From NCBI GenBank assembly GCA_963819655.1, contig CAWFXA010000001.1, positions 480,001 through 544,000 on the forward strand: DNA of 64,000 nucleotides, written 5' to 3'. This document shows, piece after piece, positions 24,483 to 32,665 of this stretch. The DNA is from an uncultured Chloroflexia bacterium. GTDB taxonomy: Bacteria; Chloroflexota; Limnocylindria; Limnocylindrales; CSP1-4. Below the pieces are notes generated by a model that worked only from the letters and a program-made list of their open reading frames with translations, made no database searches and was not told where the DNA came from. A program made the position numbers and the translations under genes. Position 1 is the first letter of the stretch. Every line of letters begins with the position of its first letter.

Positions 24483-24608
24483 GCGCGAGTCTAGTCACCC
24501 CCACGCCCGGCGATGGTCCCATCGCCACCCATACCTCCAGCGTGGTGCGTGGAGAGGCCACGTTGGATACAACAGGACGACGACCCTCGAGACCTAGGAC
24601 CGTGCCGT

Positions 24609-27297
24609 TTGCCGAGTTTCAACAGGGGCATCCGCAGCCATCGAGAGCCACAGGCAGGCACATCCGCTGACGCTCGCTCGCTCAGCACTGTGCCGCTGCG
24701 GCATGGTCTCGTCGCATCCGCGGAACGGATCCCCACGCACGTCCGCGTCTGGGCCCTGACCGCCTTCCTGGCGGCGCTGGCCGTCGTCGGTTACGCGGTC
24801 CTGCTGGTCGATCGTCCGGGCCGCGAGGTGCCGATCGCCATCCCGTGGCCGGTGATCGCATTCGGGTTCCTCGTCGCCGAGCTCAAGGTGGTGCAGGTCC
24901 ATTTCCGCCGCGAGACGCACGCGTTCTCGCTGAGCGAGTTCCCGGCGGTCATCGGCATGTTCTTCCTGCCGCCCGCGGAGTACCTCCTGGCTGTCCTCGT
25001 CGGATCGGCAGCCGCCTTCGTGCTCACCGGCTCGCGCCCCGTCAAGCTCGCGTTCAACCTCGCGAACTACGGGCTGATCGCGGTCATCTCGATGGCGATC
25101 CTCCTGTCGATCGCATCGCCGACCGGTCCGCCCGGCATCCGCGAGTGGGCCGCGGCCTTCACCGCGACCACGTTCGCGACGGTCCTCAGCTCGATCACGA
25201 TCGCCCTCGTCATCACCCTCTCGGGCGGCGCACCGCAATTCCAGAAGCTGCCCGAGATGATCCAGTTCGGGAGCATGGTCGCGCTGGCGAACACGAGTCT
25301 CGCGCTGCTCGCCGTCACGATCCTGTGGCTCCAGCCCATCATGCTGTGGCTTCTCGTGCTCCCGCTCGTGATGATCTTCGTCGCCTACCAGGCGTACATC
25401 TCCGAACGCGAGAAGCACGAACGGCTCGAGCTGCTCTACGAGTCCTCGCGGATCCTGCAGCTGTCGCCGGAGATCGATTTCACGCTCGTGGCGCTTCTCA
25501 GCCACGCCCGCACGATGTTCCGGGCGGAGCTCGCCGAGGTCATCCTCTACCCGCGATCACCGGACGCCGAGGGCCTGTGGGCGCGGTCGTGGCACGACCG
25601 GGACCCCGAGGTCTCCAGCCCCACCAGCGACGCCCTCCAGGACTCGCTCCACGATCTCGTCCGATCGTCGACCGGGCCGTTCATGCACGAGACCCGCGAT
25701 CCGGACGGACGCGTGCGACGGCACATGGTCAGCGCGCTGCGCGGCGAGTCGGACATCATCGGCTCGATGGTCATCACCAATCGGTTGACGGAGGGGACCT
25801 CGTTCGGGGACGACGATCTCCGGTTGCTGGAGACCCTCGCCAACCAGACGGCGGTCGCCCTCGAGAACGGCCACCTGGAGCAGTCGCTGGCCGAGCTCTC
25901 TCGCCTCAAGGAGCAGCTCCGCCACCAGGCCTACCACGACCCGCTCACCGGTCTGCCGAACCGGACCCTCTTCCTCGAATCGGTGGGTGAGCGGATCGGT
26001 TCGACCGGCCCCGAGATGCCGGTCGTCATGTTCCTTGACCTCGATGACTTCAAAGTCGTCAACGACACCCTCGGTCACGAGGCGGGGGATCGGCTGCTGT
26101 GTGATGTGGCGGGCCGTCTGCGGACGACCCTGCGGTCCGGGGATATCGCCGCCAGGCTCGGCGGCGACGAGTTCGCGATCCTGCTCGACGACGACCCGGG
26201 TCTTGCCCGAGCCGAAGCGGTCGCCGACCGGATCATCGACGCGCTCCGCGCGACGTTCCCGCTCGAAGGGCAGGAGATCACGATCGGGGTCAGCATCGGC
26301 ATCGCCGCGGCCCGATCGGGCATCAGCGCGGACGAACTGCTGCGCAACGCGGATGTCGCCATGTACACGGCGAAGGCCACCGGCAAGAACAGGGTCTCGG
26401 TCTTCGAGCCGACCGTCCATGCCGCGATCGTCGCCCGCCACGAGCTGAGCGCCGAGCTGTCGCGCAGCCTCGGTCGCGGCGAGCTCCACGTCTTCTACCA
26501 GCCGATCGTGGAGTTGGCGACCCGTCGCGTGACCGGGGTCGAGGCATTGATCCGCTGGCAGCATCCGGTCCGCGGCCTGATCGGCCCGAGCGAGTTCGTG
26601 CACCTCGCCGAGGAGACGCGCCTGATCCGGCCGCTCGGTCGCTGGGTCCTGCTCGAGGCCTGCCGCCAGGCCGCCGACTGGGCCGCGGTCATCCCGGGCG
26701 GCGACGACCTGACGATGTCGGTCAACCTGTCCGCGCAACAGCTCCAGGAGCCCGACTTCGTCAACGACCTCCGCCAGATCATCGCCGACACCGGCATCCG
26801 CCCCCACCAGCTCGTCCTCGAGATGACCGAGACGGTCATGTTCCACGACACGCTGACGACCCTGTCCCGGCTTGCAGCCATCCGCGACCTGGGCGTGCGC
26901 ATCGCGATCGACGACTTCGGGACCGGCTACTCGTCGCTCGGCTACCTCCGCCGCTTCCGGGTCGACATCCTCAAGATCGCGCGCGACTTCATCGGACCGG
27001 CAGAGCGCGAAGAGGAGTGGGCGTTCGCGAGCGCGATCGTCGCGATCGGTCGATCACTCGGAGTGACGATGGTCGCCGAGGGCATCGAGGAGACCGGTCA
27101 GCTCGATCGGCTGCTCGCGCTGGGGTGCGAGCTTGGCCAGGGATACCTGTTCGCCCGCGCCAGCTCGGGCCGAGGACATCGGCGCGCTGCTCGGCGTCGA
27201 GCCGGCGGCGAGTCGCGCGACCGGGGAGCGGGCCGCCAAGGGCGGAACAGTGGCGTCGTCGGGCCGGCGACGGACCATGGCCATCGATCCGACCTAG
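24609..27297 (+). CDS. multi-TM sensor + GAF-like + GGDEF-EAL protein; frameshift near 27168
   Basis: About 7 TM segments, then DLRLLETLANQTAVALEN, HDPLTGLPNR, RSGD..GGDEF, VEALIR, DDFGTGYSSL, QGYLF. After the frameshift it reads AEDIGALL...MAIDPT* (TAG 27295-27297). Start uncertain. Confidence 0.85.
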
Positions 27298-27318
27298 GCC
27301 TGGGTTACCGAAGCCATC

Positions 27319-27915
27319 ATGTTCATCCTGTACGCGCTCGTGATCGGCGTCGGGGTCGGGCTCGCCCTCGGTGGGCGCCCCGCAGGGCTCGGCAGCCTGC
27401 GGTTCCGCTGGTCGGGCGTGATGCTCGCCGGGCTGCTCGTCCAGGTCGTGCTGTTCTCCGACGCGGTCGCGGGACGCATCGGCGCGCTCGGACCGCCGAT
27501 CTACGTGGCGTCGACCGTGTTGGTGCTCGCCGCAGTCGTCGCCAACCGCTCCATCCCGGGCATGGCCATCGTCGCGCTGGGCGCAGTGAGCAACCTTGCC
27601 GCGATCGTCGCCAACGGCGGGTACATGCCGGCGGCCCGATCCGCCCTGGACGCCCTCGGCAAGACCGATCCGACGACGTATTCCAACAGTGCGACCGTCG
27701 AGCATCCGGCCCTCGGGCCGCTGACGGACATCTTCGCGATGCCCTCGTGGCTGCCCTTCGCGAACGTGTTCAGCGTCGGCGATATCCTCATCGTCGCCGG
27801 TGTCGTGACGACGATCGTCCTGGCGATGCGGAGCCCCGCGCAGGACGGCGAAATGGGCAGGGGTGCCCCCGAGCAACTCCCCCATCCAGCCGACCTCGCC
27901 AGTACGGTCGAGTGA
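27319..27915 (+). CDS. DUF5317-family membrane protein
   Basis: Family-like motifs GG...L..LRFRW, SNLAAIVANGGYMP and LTDIF...VFSVGD, recognised from memory. Confidence 0.8.
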   Translation: MFILYALVIGVGVGLALGGRPAGLGSLRFRWSGVMLAGLLVQVVLFSDAVAGRIGALGPPIYVASTVLVLAAVVANRSIPGMAIVALGAVSNLAAIVANGGYMPAARSALDALGKTDPTTYSNSATVEHPALGPLTDIFAMPSWLPFANVFSVGDILIVAGVVTTIVLAMRSPAQDGEMGRGAPEQLPHPADLASTVE

Positions 27916-27975
27916 CTGGTCCCGCGTCCTCGCCGGCCGCACCATCCCGAACGAGGGACGCTCGTCCCCCCGCTA

Positions 27976-28057
27976 ACCGGATCGTCCAGGGCAAACCCGT
28001 CGCGAGGCGGGGACGCAAAGCCAGGGATCTCTCATTCGAGACCGCCCGGCTGCCGGT
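27976..28057 (+). ncRNA. c-di-GMP-I (GEMM) riboswitch aptamer
   Basis: CAGGGCAAACCCGTC-GCGA-GGCGGGGACGCAAAGCC...GGCTGCCG matches the class I pattern GGCAAACC..GNRA..GGGACGCAAAGCC..GCUGCC. Confidence 0.92.
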
Positions 28058-28095
28058 CCTGCGAGCGTCGACCCTTCGCTGAAGAAGGAGAACGC

Positions 28096-28185
28096 GTGAA
28101 GGCGAACCTGGCGCGCTTCACCTGGGCACTCACGCTCCTGGCCAGCATGGCCCTGACCGTGGGAGCCGGGATCCGGTGGAACTGA
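28096..28185 (+). CDS. 29-aa signal-peptide-like small protein MKANLARFTWALTLLASMALTVGAGIRWN
   Basis: AAGGAG RBS 5 nt before GTG; GC3-rich codons; lies directly downstream of the riboswitch and upstream of a strong hairpin. Confidence 0.8.
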   Translation: MKANLARFTWALTLLASMALTVGAGIRWN

Positions 28186-28304
28186 CCGTGGCGGCATACG
28201 TCGCGGCCTCGACCGACCGGGTCCAGTCGACGACCGGGTACCACCCCGAGATCGTCATCGAGTCCGGGCACCGCTGGGGCTGAGTTCCAGCGAGCCGATC
28301 TCAT

Positions 28305-28335
28305 CGAGGGGCGCCGGCCACGCCGGCGCCCCTCG
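28305..28335 (+). terminator. GC-rich hairpin, probable terminator
   Basis: CGAGGGGCGCCGGC-CAC-GCCGGCGCCCCTCG is a 14-bp perfect stem; the U tract is weak. Confidence 0.6.
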
Positions 28336-28427
28336 TACGTGTCCGGGATGGGCGCCTGGCCTCCGGAACGGGGATCCTGGACCCACTCGTGCATGGTGCT
28401 ACTCTTGTGTGCATGGGAGGACCGCGC

Positions 28428-29210
28428 ATGACGGTTCCCTGGGTGGATGCCCCCCCGGAAGACGCTCGCCGCGCTCTTGTGCTCCATGATCGCCCAGCGG
28501 TCGTGGACCTCATCGAGCTGACGCTGAACCACGGTCTCTTCGTGGTCCGAGCCGCGCAGACCCTGACCGAGGCGATGGATCTCCTCGCGACGTGGCACCC
28601 GCATATGGCCGTCGTCGACATGGATCACGACGAGAGTGCCGACTTGCTCAAGCGCCTGGGCGCCTCCAATAACCTGGCGGCGAGCGGCACGCCCGTCCTC
28701 GGCCTCACGCGCCGCGGCGATCTGCGGAACAAGCTCAAGGCATTCGACCTCGGGGTGGACGACATCCTGGCGATGCCGTTCTCACCGGAAGAGTTGTTGG
28801 CCCGGTCGATCGTGATCACGCGTCGGGCTTCGGGGGTCGACCGACCGATCGTCCCCACGATCAGACTCGGCGAGATGGAGATCGACATCGTCAATCGTGT
28901 GGTCCGTGCGGGCTCTTCCGTGATCCACCTGAGCTCCATCGAGCAGAGCCTGTTGTACCTGCTTGCCAGCCGGGGTGGTCGGGTGATCTCCCGGGACGAG
29001 ATCCTGGACGGCGTCTGGGGCACCGACTTCGTGGCCGAGAGCAACATCGTCGATCGCCATATCCGGAGCCTGCGGATCAAGCTGCAGAACGACTACCGCC
29101 ACCCGCGCTTCATCGAGACGGTCCCGGGCAAGGGCTATCGGTTCATCCCGACATTCTCGAACCAGGGCTGGGACGGTGGGTCCGGCGCGGCCGAGGATCC
29201 GCCCGACTGA
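28428..29210 (+). CDS. OmpR-family response regulator with an atypical receiver
   Basis: GVDDILAMPFSPEELLAR plus a winged helix (SRDEILDGVWG, VDRHIRSLRIKL, IETVPGKGYRF). GGAGG RBS. Confidence 0.88.
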   Translation: MTVPWVDAPPEDARRALVLHDRPAVVDLIELTLNHGLFVVRAAQTLTEAMDLLATWHPHMAVVDMDHDESADLLKRLGASNNLAASGTPVLGLTRRGDLRNKLKAFDLGVDDILAMPFSPEELLARSIVITRRASGVDRPIVPTIRLGEMEIDIVNRVVRAGSSVIHLSSIEQSLLYLLASRGGRVISRDEILDGVWGTDFVAESNIVDRHIRSLRIKLQNDYRHPRFIETVPGKGYRFIPTFSNQGWDGGSGAAEDPPD

Positions 29211-29347
29211 CGAGATGACGGTTCGTCATGACGAGCCGTCATGACGACAACAGACTCGCCCCAGTCCCCGAAGCGTTGGACGGTCTGCGACCTGGGGGGC
29301 GGGACATCCAGCAGGGGTGCTTCGGGGACATAACCTGCCCCCCGGGC

Positions 29348-29923
29348 TCAGCGCCCCTGAGCGGCTGGGCGTGCGCCCGACACGATCCCTTCCCAGAACT
29401 CGACCGCGGCGCCCTCATACAGCAGGCCCATCCTCAACGTCTCGCCGCGCCAGTGTTCGACCGTCCGCTCGCCCTTTCCTGGCCCGCCGGGGCGATGCTC
29501 GAACCGCTCCTCCTCCTTGTACGCCGCCAGCTTCGCGCGATGGATCGCGAGCTGCTGCTCGGCAAGTCGCAGCCTGGCGTCCGCGGACGCCAGGTCGGCG
29601 AAGAACAGCTGCAGGAGCCCGGGATCGCGAAGTTCCGTGGGCACGTCGGACGGCCGGTCGAGCCACTCATCGAGGGCCGCGACACCGGCATTCGTGATCG
29701 TGAAGACGCGTCGCCGCCGGCCTTCGGTCTCGCGCGTCTCGGTAAGCAGGCCAAGGGCAGCGAGACGGGGAGGTTCGCTGTACAGAAGGGTGTGCGGGAA
29801 GGACCAGAAGTTTCCCAGCGTTGCTCGAACGTGGCGCTCCAGGTCGTAGGGCGTGGACGGTCCTTCCCGTGCGAGGAGCCCAAGGACGAGGTAGGACGTG
29901 GGGGTCAGGGTCCCGCTTGACAT
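29348..29923 (-). CDS. PadR-family transcriptional regulator
   Basis: LVLGLL...TPYDL...FWSFPHTLLY...RRRVFTITNAG. Confidence 0.88.
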   Translation of the reverse strand: MSSGTLTPTSYLVLGLLAREGPSTPYDLERHVRATLGNFWSFPHTLLYSEPPRLAALGLLTETRETEGRRRRVFTITNAGVAALDEWLDRPSDVPTELRDPGLLQLFFADLASADARLRLAEQQLAIHRAKLAAYKEEERFEHRPGGPGKGERTVEHWRGETLRMGLLYEGAAVEFWEGIVSGARPAAQGR

Positions 29924-29930
29924 AATACGC

Positions 29931-29945
29931 ATCGTACCATACGAT
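29931..29945. promoter_or_regulatory. palindrome containing the padR -10 box; candidate PadR operator
   Basis: ATCGTA-CCA-TACGAT; on the minus strand TACGAT lies 7 nt before the padR ATG. Confidence 0.5.
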
Positions 29946-30067
29946 ACGAACTATTCCGCACTGTCCACACCGGACCAGTCGCCGGGGAAATCCAAACCCG
30001 GTGGGCATCCACGATGCTCGAACCTGGACCCGCTCACGCCAGCGCGGCCAGTAGCAAGGGTGGTTAC

Positions 30068-30505
30068 ATGACCACGGAAACCCTGAGGATGATCGAGCGG
30101 ATCCCGCTCGAGGTCCTGAACAACGGCAACTTCGGTCTTCTCGACGAGATCGTGTCGACTGATTTCGTCGAGCACTATGCCCAGCAGGGCGTGCCCCCGA
30201 CGCGCGAGGGCTTCAAGCAGACCGTGACCGCGCTCAAGACCGCGTTCCCCGATCTCCACTACACGATCGACGACGCGCTCGAGAGTGGCGACAAGATCAT
30301 CCATCGCCTGACCGCGAGCGGCACCATGAAGGGTGACTTCATGGGCATCCCCGCGACGGGCAAGCGAGCGACGTGGACCGAGATCCACATCGGGAAGGTC
30401 GCCAATGGGCGCCTGACCGAGCACTGGGGTCTCGTCGATCAGCTGGGCATGCTCGTCCAGCTCGGCGTCGTTCCTGCCCCTGGCAGGGTCCCCGTCACGG
30501 TCTAA
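30068..30505 (+). CDS. SnoaL-like ester cyclase family protein
   Basis: AFPDLHYTIDD...GTMKGDFMGIPATGK...EHWGLVDQLGMLVQLG. Confidence 0.88.
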   Translation: MTTETLRMIERIPLEVLNNGNFGLLDEIVSTDFVEHYAQQGVPPTREGFKQTVTALKTAFPDLHYTIDDALESGDKIIHRLTASGTMKGDFMGIPATGKRATWTEIHIGKVANGRLTEHWGLVDQLGMLVQLGVVPAPGRVPVTV

Positions 30506-30525
30506 GTCGTCGACGACGACGCGAT

Positions 30526-30553
30526 GAAGGCCCCGGCATACGCCGGGGCCTTC
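30526..30553. terminator. hairpin between convergent genes
   Basis: GAAGGCCCCGGC-ATAC-GCCGGGGCCTTC. Confidence 0.7.
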
Positions 30554-30584
30554 GTGCGTCCCACTCGAAACGGCGGCGTGTCGG

Positions 30585-31571
30585 TCAGCGCGCGTCCACC
30601 CGATCGGACAGCTCGCTGCGGCTGGGCATCGGCATCGGCGCTTCGCACACGCGCCGCAGGACATCGCTGAATCGGGCCGTTGCGAGCCCGGTCACACTGT
30701 CGGCGGCGCCGTAGTAGAGGTACAGGAGGTCGGCATCCTCGTCGAGCGTCCAGCCACACGGGAACACGACGCGTCCCACGTCGCCTGTGATCTCGTACTG
30801 CGCTGACGGCCCGAACACCCATTCATCGGTCTGGTGCAGCACCGTGGTCGGGTCCTCGAGGTCCAACAGCGCAAGGCCCGCTCTGTAGATCGGGCCATCG
30901 GCAGTCGAGTGGACGCCGTGGTACAGGATGAGCCAGCCTTCTGTCGTCTCGAGCGGAGGGGGACCGAGGCCGATCTTGCCCGCATCCCACCAGGCTCCGT
31001 CGCGGGCCTCCAGGAGCAGCTTGTGGTCGCCCCAGTGGCGGAGATCCGGCGAGTAGGAGAGCCACATGTGAGCTCCGCCTCGCAGCGGCGACGGGCGATG
31101 GATCATCGCCCATCGTCCATCGAAGCGGCGGGGGAAGAGCGCCGCGTCCTTGTCCTCGGGCGGCATCGCCGGGCCGAGTCGACGGACGGTCCGGAAGTCT
31201 GGCGTCATGGCCAAAGAGACGAGTGGCCCACGCCGGCTGTAGGCGGTGTAGGCGATCGCCCACTCCTCGCGCTCGGGAAGCCAGGTGAGCCGCGGGTCTT
31301 CGCAGCCCCAGATCTCCTCAGGAGCTTGAGCCACGTCGGATCGCAGGAGGGGTTCCGGGTCGAATCGCCAGTCCGAGATCCCGTCGCGGCTGCGGGCGAC
31401 GTGCAGCTGGGAGATCCCGCGCATGTCCTCGACCCGGGCCAGGAGGACGGTCTCGTCGCCGACCCGGGCCGCTCCGGGGTTGAAGACCGAGTTGGCGTGA
31501 TACGGCACGTCGGCCGCGACAAGGATCGGATTCGCCGCCGATCGCTCGAAGAGCTCGCGCGGTGCGGTCAT
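30585..31571 (-). CDS. GH130-family glycosidase/phosphorylase
   Basis: SVFNPGA, GCEDPR, DKDAALFP, YHGV, VVFPCG, YYGAADS. Confidence 0.88.
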   Translation of the reverse strand: MTAPRELFERSAANPILVAADVPYHANSVFNPGAARVGDETVLLARVEDMRGISQLHVARSRDGISDWRFDPEPLLRSDVAQAPEEIWGCEDPRLTWLPEREEWAIAYTAYSRRGPLVSLAMTPDFRTVRRLGPAMPPEDKDAALFPRRFDGRWAMIHRPSPLRGGAHMWLSYSPDLRHWGDHKLLLEARDGAWWDAGKIGLGPPPLETTEGWLILYHGVHSTADGPIYRAGLALLDLEDPTTVLHQTDEWVFGPSAQYEITGDVGRVVFPCGWTLDEDADLLYLYYGAADSVTGLATARFSDVLRRVCEAPMPMPSRSELSDRVDAR

Positions 31572-32665
31572 CGCGCGACAGCGACTGCCAGGGCTTCGGT
31601 CCGGGTGGGCGCTGCCGTAGGAACGCCGCGGATGTTCCGGATCCGTTCCAGGGCGATCAGCCACATCAAGGTCGATTCGGCTCCCTGATTCTCGTTGACA
31701 CCCTCAGGCGTGAGACCGTCGAAGCATGCGCCTCGCTGCGGGACGGCCACGGCCACATGCAGATCGTTCTCACCGAGGAACCACGCGTACGCCCGCTCCA
31801 TCGCGGCATGGTACTTGTCATCGCCGGTCGCTTCGTAGGCCGACTCGGCGGCGAGCACCAGCGCCGTCGCCTCGATCGGTTGCTGGTCGAACTTGGACTT
31901 TTCTCCGCCGCGTGGCCACCAACCGTTGCCGACCGGCGAGAGGTGACCCGCCGGGTCGGTCTGCGAGACGATGAGCCAGTCGAGGACGTCCAGGCCGGCC
32001 TCGAGCAGCGCACTCTCGTCGAGGTAGCGCCCCGCGGCGACAAGCGCCTGCGCGGGAAGTGCGTTCTCATAGGTCAGTCGGGTCTCCGGCCAGCGCCAGG
32101 CGGACGTTCCGAGGGACTCGAAGGTCGCTCCGATCCGATTGGCCAGTGGGCGATAGGCAAGCGCGGTTCGTCCGGTCGGGGCAGCCCGCATCACGGCGTC
32201 GCAACCCAGAAGGACCGATGACTGCGCGCGCAAGGCACGCACCGTCTGGGTCGCCGGCAACGCCCCCGAGAACAGCGACGACGCGGACGCGATCATGGCC
32301 GGGTCAGAGGCCGACGCGATCGTCCAGCCGAGTGCCAGCATCGCCCGCCCCTGACTGTCCTCCGAGGCGACCCCGTCGAGCCACGACCCGTCGACACGTC
32401 GGAAGTTCCGGAACCTTCCTGTCGTGCGATCGAACGCGTCGTCCAGGAAGCGGATGCTTCGCCACGCGCTCGCCGCGACCGCATCCCAACCAAGCTCGCG
32501 CTGGTGAAGGAGATCGACCTGCAGCGCTCGGGCGACGTCATCGGTGCAGTAGCCATGGGCCGGATCGGGCTGCGGCCCGATGGCGTGCTGCATGATCCCG
32601 AGGTCACCAGTCAGTGCGTCGAGATGGTCCCGGACCACGGGATAGAGCGGCGCGAGGTCAGGCAT
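31568..32665 (-). CDS. glycosyltransferase-associated six-hairpin-like protein
   Basis: GIMQHA...GYCTDDVARAL, SEDSQGRA, LTYENA, FDQQPIEA, NQGAEST. This domain is commonly found C-terminal to GT4 enzymes. Confidence 0.75.
   Translation of the reverse strand: MPDLAPLYPVVRDHLDALTGDLGIMQHAIGPQPDPAHGYCTDDVARALQVDLLHQRELGWDAVAASAWRSIRFLDDAFDRTTGRFRNFRRVDGSWLDGVASEDSQGRAMLALGWTIASASDPAMIASASSLFSGALPATQTVRALRAQSSVLLGCDAVMRAAPTGRTALAYRPLANRIGATFESLGTSAWRWPETRLTYENALPAQALVAAGRYLDESALLEAGLDVLDWLIVSQTDPAGHLSPVGNGWWPRGGEKSKFDQQPIEATALVLAAESAYEATGDDKYHAAMERAYAWFLGENDLHVAVAVPQRGACFDGLTPEGVNENQGAESTLMWLIALERIRNIRGVPTAAPTRTEALAVAVAR

Follow-up and report, generated by a model that had tools for sequence, protein, structure and literature searches.

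We analyzed a 64,000-nucleotide (nt) stretch of DNA, referred to below as the window, from an uncultured Chloroflexia bacterium (Chloroflexota; Limnocylindria; Limnocylindrales; CSP1-4; GenBank assembly GCA_963819655.1, contig CAWFXA010000001.1, positions 480,001 to 544,000 of the forward strand). The subject is a 29-residue open reading frame (ORF), denoted ORF1, that lies behind a riboswitch aptamer of the c-di-GMP-I-GGC variant (c-di-GMP, cyclic diguanosine monophosphate) and is followed by a second tiny frame, ORF2. In coordinates of the window, the locus contains the following features (aa, amino acids):

24513-27297, plus strand: gene for a protein with a membrane domain followed by GAF, GGDEF, and EAL domains (Pfam EAL, 6e-72; GGDEF, 4.2e-44; GAF_3, 6.9e-9)
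27319-27915, plus strand: gene for a DUF5317 membrane protein of 198 aa (Pfam PF17248, 3.2e-26)
27981-28058, plus strand: c-di-GMP-I-GGC riboswitch aptamer (Rfam RF03167, full model)
28073-28090, plus strand: hairpin formed by CCUUC (28073-28077) and GAAGG (28084-28088) in minimum free energy folds, overlapping the Shine-Dalgarno (SD) sequence AAGGAG (28085-28090)
28096-28121, plus strand: start-codon hairpin GUGAAGGCG...CGCGCUUCAC of the minimum free energy fold
28096-28185, plus strand: ORF1, 29 aa from a GTG start; the peptide has one hydrophobic helix and, close to its C-terminus, a conserved A-G-x-[RK]-W
28176-28283, plus strand: ORF2, 35 aa (31 aa if read from the GTG at 28188), ending in VIESGHRWG; its start is uncertain, and it overlaps or abuts the ORF1 stop codon
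28305-28335, plus strand: terminator-like hairpin with a 14-bp G+C stem, a 3-nt loop, and no U-tract, from sequence and fold

ORF1 encodes MKANLARFTWALTLLASMALTVGAGIRWN (29 aa) and ends with a TGA codon at 28183-28185; the SD sequence AAGGAG at 28085-28090 is separated by 5 nt from the GTG at 28096. The peptide consists of a basic N-terminal region with K2 and R7, an uncharged segment from F8 to V22, the small residues G23-A24-G25, and an I-R-W-N tail. A first-pass annotation, made from the letters alone, had described this frame with its AAGGAG ribosome-binding site, GTG start, basic n-region, hydrophobic core, small-residue motif, and IRWN tail, all of which are in the sequence. It had also placed a riboswitch upstream, which corresponds to the RF03167 aptamer at 27981-28058 (65.8 bits against a threshold of 59), and had read the peptide as signal-peptide-like; K2, R7, the hydrophobic residues 8-22, and the residues at -3 and -1 agree with this, as judged from the sequence. 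The same annotation took ORF1 for the only target of the riboswitch, and here it was mistaken, since the unit also contains the conserved ORF2 (28176 or 28188 to 28283).

Because ORFs are so frequent in this part of the window (81 of at least 20 aa overlap 25000-32000, in DNA of 70% G+C), the open frame of ORF1 proves nothing by itself. G or C occupies 27 of the 29 third codon positions, as it does in real genes of this 70% G+C genome. Among 25 aligned copies, the entropy at the three codon positions was 0.55/0.33/0.96, and the pairwise ratio of nonsynonymous to synonymous differences (pN/pS) was 0.42 in frame compared to 0.96 and 2.40 in the other two frames. The invariant A16 and G25 and the nearly invariant G23 and A24 are each specified by three or four codons in these copies, and versions that diverged in nucleotide sequence, such as the K-S-T-L-A-R-L-S clade, keep the peptide. 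Judged by these substitution patterns, ORF1 is a protein-coding gene under purifying selection. No family in Pfam or NCBIfam matches it; the ESM Atlas yielded only unnamed "hypothetical protein" clusters, of 29-30 residues for ORF1 and of 29-33 aa overall (scores 0.89-0.93), which are leads rather than evidence.

In total, we collected 58 copies of ORF1, all from one Chloroflexota class, in which they occur in two families; their 28-residue cores represent 49 distinct sequences. A profile built from 25 copies (alignment A1) had matches in 45 of the 301 genomes of the class at E ≤0.01, among them 21 of 91 in the family of the window and 20 of 103 in the second family (E down to 1e-11). The relatives retrieved with the DUF5317 protein were all metagenome-assembled. 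The segment from M1 to W28 is free of insertions and deletions in all 58 copies, and 56 of these have a GTG start at the same position behind an SD sequence. Across the 49 cores, M1, G25, and W28 are invariant, whereas K2 (44/49), L5, R7 (46/49), T9, A11, L15, A16, A19, L20, and A24 (48/49) are nearly so; position 22 is L, V, or I in 45 cores, and position 27 is R or K in all. Residues 8-26 are uncharged in every core, and residues 8-22 are hydrophobic. Position 26 varies (M/I/L/V/Y/K), and the residues after W28, mainly W, Y, D, N, and H, are free in sequence and number 0-12, with three copies stopping at the W; conservation is higher in the n- and h-regions than in the tail. Conservation follows one helix face with a period of 4 (A11/L12, L15/A16, A19/L20, G23/A24, then W28), and the conservation moment peaks at 85-90 degrees; a moment of the observed size was reached by only 78-212 of 10,000 shuffles, depending on the range.

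Several copies depart from the common layout. In locus L024 (oriented 310-423), ORF1 ends in ...GAGIKWLGVAGIKWL, with the C-terminal motif duplicated in tandem (AGIKWL tail), and read-through tails were seen in L079 (...KWMAAFVVAGPIGS) and L041 (...RWDLIRILI). Modules consisting of riboswitch and ORF1, with or without ORF2, are tandemly duplicated about 500-590 nt apart, each with its own aptamer, at G008:C27 (L034/L035), G016:C2 (L019/L041), G010:C16 (L038/L043), and G297:C2 (L079).

The aptamer matched RF03167 with 65.8 bits (gathering score, 59; E 2.6e-13) over positions 1-80 of the 80-position model and belongs to the sole Rfam family found in the whole window. ORF1 starts 37 nt past it on the same strand, that is, in cis, and this distance is 31-39 nt in the genus. 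In the genus sample, an ORF1-type frame lies downstream of at least 26 of 76 aptamer matches; in two further scans, made from the other side, 15 of 17 and 16 of 16 loci had the aptamer upstream of ORF1. RF03167 is present in 31 of the 36 other genomes of the genus sample, often in multiple copies, and in none of 24 small genomes of the sister family. For the phylum, 151 genomes were sampled, and 31 have it. Its targets outside the class are mostly larger proteins with signal peptides, and no such tiny peptides; in this class, its commonest targets include tiny membrane peptides. The c-di-GMP-I-GGC variant was reportedly described by Weinberg et al. in 2017 in PNAS. Its ligand is, to our knowledge, not established; the GGDEF-EAL and HD-GYP genes at these loci point to c-di-GMP or a closely related molecule.

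Other copies of the aptamer have other targets. The second RF03167 copy of this genome (C1:464653-464729, minus strand; L002), about 43 kb upstream of the one considered here (C1:507981-508058), precedes a large anchored exported protein with a Pro/Thr-rich linker, an arrangement with orthologs in L023, L030, L036, and L039. Further copies in the genus precede S8-type peptidases (L053, L058, L059, L062) or secreted proteins of 120-155 aa. A second class of tiny ORFs, of 34-35 aa and the MEVQISPRVR...LLAAAANVQG type with one hydrophobic helix, starts 10-15 nt past RF03167 in 13 of 31 listed loci of the same genus, with variable neighbors and no DUF5317 (L003-L011, L013, L015-L017, L175; for example, L009, oriented 1588-1695).

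The hairpin at 28073-28090 is presumed to be part of a translational expression platform; relatives in the clade of the window have hairpins of different sequence at the equivalent place. The GUG of ORF1 itself lies within the GUGAAGGCG/CGC-CUUCAC hairpin, and codons 2-9 are unusually fixed at the nucleotide level (AAG in 20 of 25 copies, GCG in 19, AAC in 18, and CTG in 23, followed by GCG in 22, CGC in 21, and TTC in 21). The interval between the aptamer and the start codon leaves no room for a terminator. The 151-nt leader as a whole folds no better than shuffled sequences (z -0.97). Control of ORF1 by the riboswitch is probably exerted at the level of translation.

ORF2, in the frame 28176-28283, encodes MELTVAAYVAASTDRVQSTTGYHPEIVIESGHRWG. 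In both families, ORF1 is followed by a frame with the ending [LV]-[VI]-x-[EDR]-[AS]-G-[HQR]-R-W and 0-6 further residues, in 49 of the 58 copies altogether; because this set was chosen by the motif, the motif is necessarily invariant in it. In the last ten codons of ORF2, pN/pS was 0.58 in frame compared to 1.99 and 1.50 in the other frames, and the invariant Gly is encoded by GGC, GGG, GGT, and GGA 14, 13, 10, and 9 times, respectively; the Arg codon of the motif is CGC in 45 of 46 cases. In several genera, ORF2 is a complete hydrophobic peptide, with the consensus MKxxxKxQAFRVLLALSxLASSALVLEAGQRW (alignment A3). Since hhalign aligned ORF1 (A1) with this transmembrane type of ORF2 (A3) over 27 columns at 92.3% probability (E 5.5e-7), the two families are, by profile comparison, paralogs. 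Of the 301 genomes of the class, 45 encode peptides of the A3 type; one genome may contain as many as four, and many of these copies are not next to ORF1. The N-terminal part of ORF2 is non-hydrophobic in the clade of the window and in most of the second family. In L097-L107 of the second family, ORF2 starts with M-x-x-x-V-C, continues as a Pro/Thr-rich segment, and ends in DLVIRAGHRWY, with the Cys at position 6 conserved.

The unit is closed by the strong hairpin at 28305-28335, the best local fold of which has a free energy of -33.7 kcal/mol, against -24.0 kcal/mol in shuffled sequence. Most other loci have a similar hairpin after the peptides: over 58 loci, the best 45-nt fold averaged -28.0 compared to -19.8 kcal/mol, with z below -2 in 35. 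A scan for consensus terminators found none because the hairpin lacks a T-run. Past this point, the genes differ, being infC, rpmI, rplT, and pheS in one family and regulators, GGDEF-EAL paralogs, or unrelated genes in the other. Contigs nearly identical to the DNA of the unit were found in four metatranscriptome runs from three studies. Those that bridge the aptamer and ORF1 cover 27994-28124 (0 differences), 28006-28113 (1), and 28006-28120 (1), and those that bridge ORF1 and ORF2 cover 28109-28260 (0) and 28031-28215 (2). For 27864-27957, no near-identical contig was present in any of the four runs, and the flanking genes were sparsely covered in two of these, but with contigs such a gap proves nothing and is not taken to mark a transcript start; in every run, fewer than half of the sampled words of the stretch were present.

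In the window, ORF1 is surrounded by the GGDEF-EAL and DUF5317 genes and by genes for an OmpR-type regulator, PadR, SnoaL, and GH130; across the ORF1 loci, only DUF5317 and GGDEF-EAL are conserved neighbors, and no receptor, Opp-type or ABC transporter, exporter, or Trp-modifying gene is linked to ORF1 among its neighbors. Of the ORF1 copies, 40 had at least 1,000 nt of sequence available, and in 36 of these a hidden Markov model of 19 sequences (A2) detected DUF5317 upstream and on the strand of ORF1, at a distance of 104-303 nt in 34 of the 36. The same type of GGDEF-EAL gene lies upstream in most ORF1 loci, and the product of the window copy (24513-27297) is predicted to be of the c-di-GMP synthase/phosphodiesterase type. 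Roughly 50 codons from its end, near 27124-27160, this gene apparently shifts frame, and the mechanically called ORF (1,189 aa) extends through DUF5317 and the riboswitch to 28082; in the relatives, the C-termini (...DIGALLGV...MAIDPT) are in frame and end at a point that corresponds to about 27297, just before DUF5317. The frameshift is either an assembly indel or real, and the catalytic domains are intact. Past the unit, 28389-29210 encodes the OmpR-type response regulator, with no histidine kinase beside it and with PadR next on the other strand; this regulator is specific to the clade of the window and is not a conserved neighbor of the peptides.

The genome encodes three DUF5317 genes. 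The second (L115) is followed 175 nt on by a 32-aa paralog of the peptides, MKNIIKSGAFRTLMLLSVLASSGLVLEAARRW, which has its own SD sequence and hairpin and no Rfam match. The third (G000:C2:602863-603309, minus strand; L117) is fused to a multi-pass transporter-like domain (at least 673 aa) and comes directly after an HD-GYP-type gene, a further link of DUF5317 with c-di-GMP turnover; DUF5317 frames of 600-750 aa are found in many genomes of the class. DUF5317 thus keeps company both with c-di-GMP enzymes and with ORF1-type peptides. Of 251 genomes sampled from the phylum, 78 encode it (one of the 78, G546, is flagged as unpublished), and a full-text literature search returned no paper that mentions it.

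The AlphaFold2 model of DUF5317 (predicted local distance difference test [pLDDT], 87.6; predicted template modeling score, 0.80) shows five long helices and a conserved loop region, 99-152. N92, N99, D137, N149, and D155 are invariant in 19 sequences; the loop carries N99, Y121, N123, S124, D137, and N149, and D155 begins the last helix. By the positive-inside rule, we infer that the loop faces outward. A complex of DUF5317 with ORF1 was predicted with a median score of 0.32 (0.58/0.32/0.29 in three runs), compared to 0.01 for the best of three controls. The runs share at least 84% of contacts, and the pLDDT of the partner is at least 62. Among solved complexes, 58 of 80 attained the mark that this score had to reach, as did 2 of 110 mismatched pairs; passing scores of up to 0.60 belong to only 7 of the 80 solved complexes and to both passing mismatches, in a calibration set with no protein shorter than 30 residues.

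The ORF, the riboswitch, purifying selection, paralogy, synteny, the terminator hairpin, and presence in RNA libraries are established as observations, and from these we infer the translation of ORF1, its membrane insertion and topology, its partner, the direction of the switch, and the physiological output. On balance, and with ample room for doubt, we think that the unit probably encodes two single-pass membrane peptides that are gated by the riboswitch and work together with DUF5317 and the c-di-GMP enzymes. The product of ORF1 would be a 29-residue single-pass membrane peptide with its basic N-terminus (K2, R7) inside, a 20-residue helix spanning the membrane, and the A-G-x-[R/K]-W motif at the outer interface. 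It would be made, together with its paralog ORF2, from one short, self-terminated transcript, translation of which may be gated by the c-di-GMP-type riboswitch via the structures around the SD sequence and the GUG start. With its one conserved face of small residues and leucines, the ORF1 helix could pack against a partner, the likeliest being the adjacent DUF5317, itself tied to enzymes that make and break c-di-GMP. The riboswitch would then link the supply of ORF1 to the second messenger of the neighboring enzymes, and the peptide might feed back on the membrane module or act through it.

We favor a membrane-resident microprotein because of the helix-long, one-face conservation with a period of 4, the charge pattern, and the interface-like tail. 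A pattern of this kind would be expected of a transmembrane helix packed lengthwise on another helix and fits such a helix better than a disposable signal peptide. The N-terminus is placed inside since K2 and R7 compare with a single R or K next to the C-terminal carboxylate, and the variable tails, rich in W, Y, D, N, and H, seem to behave like interface-anchoring residues. ORF1 also shares the traits of small membrane regulators, with fewer than 50 aa, one uncharged helix of membrane length, and one conserved face.

Several observations weigh against this membrane-peptide reading. The chief unexplained point is posed by the non-hydrophobic versions of ORF2, including that of the window, which keep the [AS]G-H-R-W end, awkwardly for a motif that would sit at the outer face. 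Four of the 40 ORF1 copies (L025, L091, L094, and L109) have no DUF5317 upstream, and outside the class only 1 of 25 DUF5317 loci (L137) was followed by an RW-type peptide that passed a crude filter, one unlike this family. The complex score falls in the grade of "weak support", which by the definition of the tool is more often wrong unless the guess was likely beforehand. The residues at positions 22 (V/L/I) and 24 (A) fit the -3/-1 pattern of signal peptidase, so that ORF1 might not stay intact. Over 56 loci, the SD sequence was paired with a mean probability of 0.64 compared to 0.59 with shuffled upstream sequence (higher in 33 of the 56), which is not significant, and the translational gate is therefore drawn from the clade of the window. 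The contigs from RNA libraries show presence but not strand, ends, or level, and may reflect DNA carry-over.

The best-surviving alternative, which we consider unlikely, is that ORF1 is the precursor of a secreted peptide signal, cut after V/L-G-A24 by signal peptidase I, or by DUF5317 should it be signal-peptidase-II-like, to release G-x-[R/K]-W-x as an outside signal. Its n-h-c build, with A24 at -1 in 48 of the 49 cores and L/V/I at -3 in 45, is as such a precursor would have it, and so are the exported proteins that make up most of the other riboswitch targets in the phylum and the duplicated AGIKWL tail of the copy in L024. The first-pass annotation had proposed a pheromone precursor on these lines and expected a GA..[RK]W tail conserved with synonymous variation, which was indeed observed: G25 and W28 never vary, R or K always stands at position 27, with alternative R and K codons, and A16, G23, A24, and G25 are encoded by synonymous codons. 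A freely varying tail, which it held to be incompatible with the proposal, was encountered in part, in that position 26 and the 0-12 residues past W28 vary whereas G25, [RK]27, and W28 are kept. The proposal itself is not supported. In addition to the free tail, near-invariant K2, L5, and R7 and the one-face, period-4 helix would be unusual in a signal peptide that is to be discarded, no receptor, Opp/ABC exporter, transporter, or Trp-modifying enzyme is found among the conserved neighbors, and many ORF2 versions carry the motif without an export signal.

The part that DUF5317 could play as the cutter merits separate consideration. In a specific version, DUF5317 is related to signal peptidase II, though diverged and Cys-independent, and cuts the lipobox-like L-x-G-A|G of ORF1 and its paralogs on the outer side of the membrane; the released G-x-R-W, its release gated by the riboswitch, is sensed by the membrane domain of the GGDEF-EAL protein. 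This version, to which we give a rather slim chance, would, if true, constitute a new way of coupling a second messenger inside the cell to a peptide signal outside it, and would give DUF5317 its first function. Its leads are a match of DUF5317 to Pfam Peptidase_A8 (PF01252) and the ranks of LspA structures, which were confirmed as LspA (6ryo/6ryp, 5dir) via the LspA encoded in the same genome. The Peptidase_A8 match scored 16.5 bits (E 0.0099), below the cut-off of 25 for membership. In the structural comparison (VIA-align), LspA ranked 7 and 9 of 48,161 chains, with 18% identity (6ryp_A, Z 5.1, root mean square deviation 4.2 over 97 residues; 5dir_A, Z 5.0, 3.0 over 92 residues), and Z below 8 lies in the range that the tool states as noise for helical bundles. 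The DUF5317 profile had no match among all PDB sequences at E up to 10, Foldseek retrieved nothing from the PDB at E ≤0.001, and hhalign gave 2.8% against the LspA of the genome. The likeness to LspA is within noise, a lead and not a finding. None of the 49 cores has a Cys at or near position 25 or, indeed, anywhere, so that there is no lipobox.

Less probable than a secreted signal, and in our view distinctly doubtful, is direct action on the bilayer: ORF1 and ORF2 would be membrane-active effectors, similar to type I toxins or holins, that need no specific partner and cause depolarization or permeabilization under second-messenger control, for example upon dormancy entry or matrix release. 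The size, hydrophobicity, and small-xxx-small pattern of the peptides could drive self-association, the paralogous family is multicopy (up to four type-2 copies per genome, some without a riboswitch), and the same genus has the class of riboswitch-controlled, 35-aa hydrophobic peptides without fixed neighbors. Synteny with DUF5317 in 36 of 40 copies, however, is unexpected for a free-standing toxin, and a polar motif conserved at the C-terminus speaks for recognition of something specific. Neither an antitoxin RNA nor an immunity gene turned up, although no search aimed at them was made.

A regulatory role of translation itself seems highly improbable. In this scenario, ORF1 and ORF2 are leader peptides, the translation of which controls the fate of the transcript or the downstream gene by stalling at the G-x-R-W codons, coupling, or terminator masking. 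The same motif does stand a few codons before the stop in both ORFs, the ORF2 Arg codon is nearly always CGC (45/46), codons 2-9 of ORF1 are conserved as nucleotides and pair with the start region, and the R-W codons of ORF1 form a GGUGG-like SD sequence ahead of the ORF2 start. Yet what lies downstream is not constant, with infC-rpmI-rplT in one family and regulators or enzymes in the other, and the unit itself ends in a strong terminator-like hairpin. Between the motif and the stop there are anywhere from 0 to 12 residues, and a stalling motif has no need of amino acid selection over an entire 28-residue helix.

That ORF1 is a chance open frame in G+C-rich DNA, the conserved element being the expression platform of the riboswitch, is hardly credible: open frames abound in the region and the first nine codons overlap RNA structure, but the frame-specific substitution pattern, the 58 indel-free copies across two bacterial families, the turnover of synonymous codons at invariant residues, and the retention of the peptide in nucleotide-divergent versions (the K-S-T-L-A-R-L-S clade) all contradict it. 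Other candidates were dropped. One was a ribosomally synthesized and post-translationally modified peptide or modified-Trp product, given that no modifying enzyme lies nearby; Flp or type IV pilins and KdpF-like subunits were set aside as well, as they are not known to share a motif or neighbors with ORF1.

If the unit works as a pair of membrane peptides, an orphan riboswitch variant gains a concrete and very unusual main target, two peptides that each hardly exceed the length of a membrane helix. The view of tiny membrane proteins as the agents of c-di-GMP riboswitches, put forward for Clostridioides difficile as recently as October 2026, would extend to an unrelated, uncultured phylum and an unrelated peptide family, and DUF5317, a widespread membrane protein, would obtain its first testable hypothesis. 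With an RNA of 360 nt, the two peptides, and a single membrane protein of 198 aa, the system is small enough to be reconstituted in vitro or in a model host.

Compared to known systems, the aptamer of the window is a full-length member of RF03167, and the new aspect is the association with these genes. A full-text literature search found nothing on the peptides, a statement of novelty bounded by the fact that the 2017 paper defining the variant and its supplements lay outside the search. Like lipoprotein signal peptides, ORF1 is a signal-like helix with its N-terminus in, and its end, L-x-[VL]-G-A-G, recalls a lipobox. On the side of LspA, the neighboring DUF5317 has two invariant Asp residues 18 positions apart at the predicted outer face, along with weak matches to LspA. 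Unlike in the LspA system, the lipobox Cys is found in 0 of 49 ORF1 cores, and all tests of DUF5317-LspA homology are below threshold or within noise.

Precursors of the Phr, ComX, and SHP/XIP signals are short, with activity in the last few C-terminal residues, which often include a basic residue or Trp; the Phr precursor has a signal-peptide-like N-terminus, and in these systems a gene for the cognate receptor, exporter, or modifying enzyme adjoins. ORF1 differs from them in having no linked receptor, exporter, or modifier and in conserving the helix but not the tail as a unit. The small regulators MgrB (with PhoQ), AcrZ (with AcrB), KdpF, and PmrR have fewer than 50 residues and one transmembrane helix that packs on a larger membrane protein, and such single-pass regulators are often induced by the pathway on which they feed back. 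ORF1 has no sequence relation to MgrB, AcrZ, KdpF, or PmrR, its partner is a putative one, and it is controlled by a riboswitch rather than a transcription factor, with two paralogs per unit.

The closest precedent is the CD1980.2/CD2309 family of C. difficile, a family of 58-aa membrane-associated proteins controlled by five class I c-di-GMP riboswitches (PMC13724677, Nat Commun 2026). Some of these ORFs were formerly unannotated, further paralogs have no riboswitch, and the proteins jointly promote sporulation; no homologs are reported outside C. difficile (PMC13724677). The two families are alike in comprising small, partly unannotated ORFs directly behind c-di-GMP-I-type riboswitches, in encoding membrane-associated proteins with a hydrophobic helix and an i,i+4 pattern that was proposed to be a helix interface, and in being multicopy and paralogous, with some copies riboswitch-free. 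The C. difficile proteins, on the same account, are unlike ORF1 and ORF2 in having 58 aa, a C-terminal hydrophobic helix, and a predicted four-helix fold, and in being controlled by premature termination, with sporulation as the output (PMC13724677). ORF1 and ORF2, for their part, have 29-35 aa and little beyond one helix, form a tandem pair with a C-terminal G-x-R-W, are linked to DUF5317 and GGDEF-EAL, are probably under translational control, and belong to an uncultured Chloroflexota host. The ORF1 family is set apart from that of C. difficile by size, build, phylum, and genomic partner, and is the same kind of thing.

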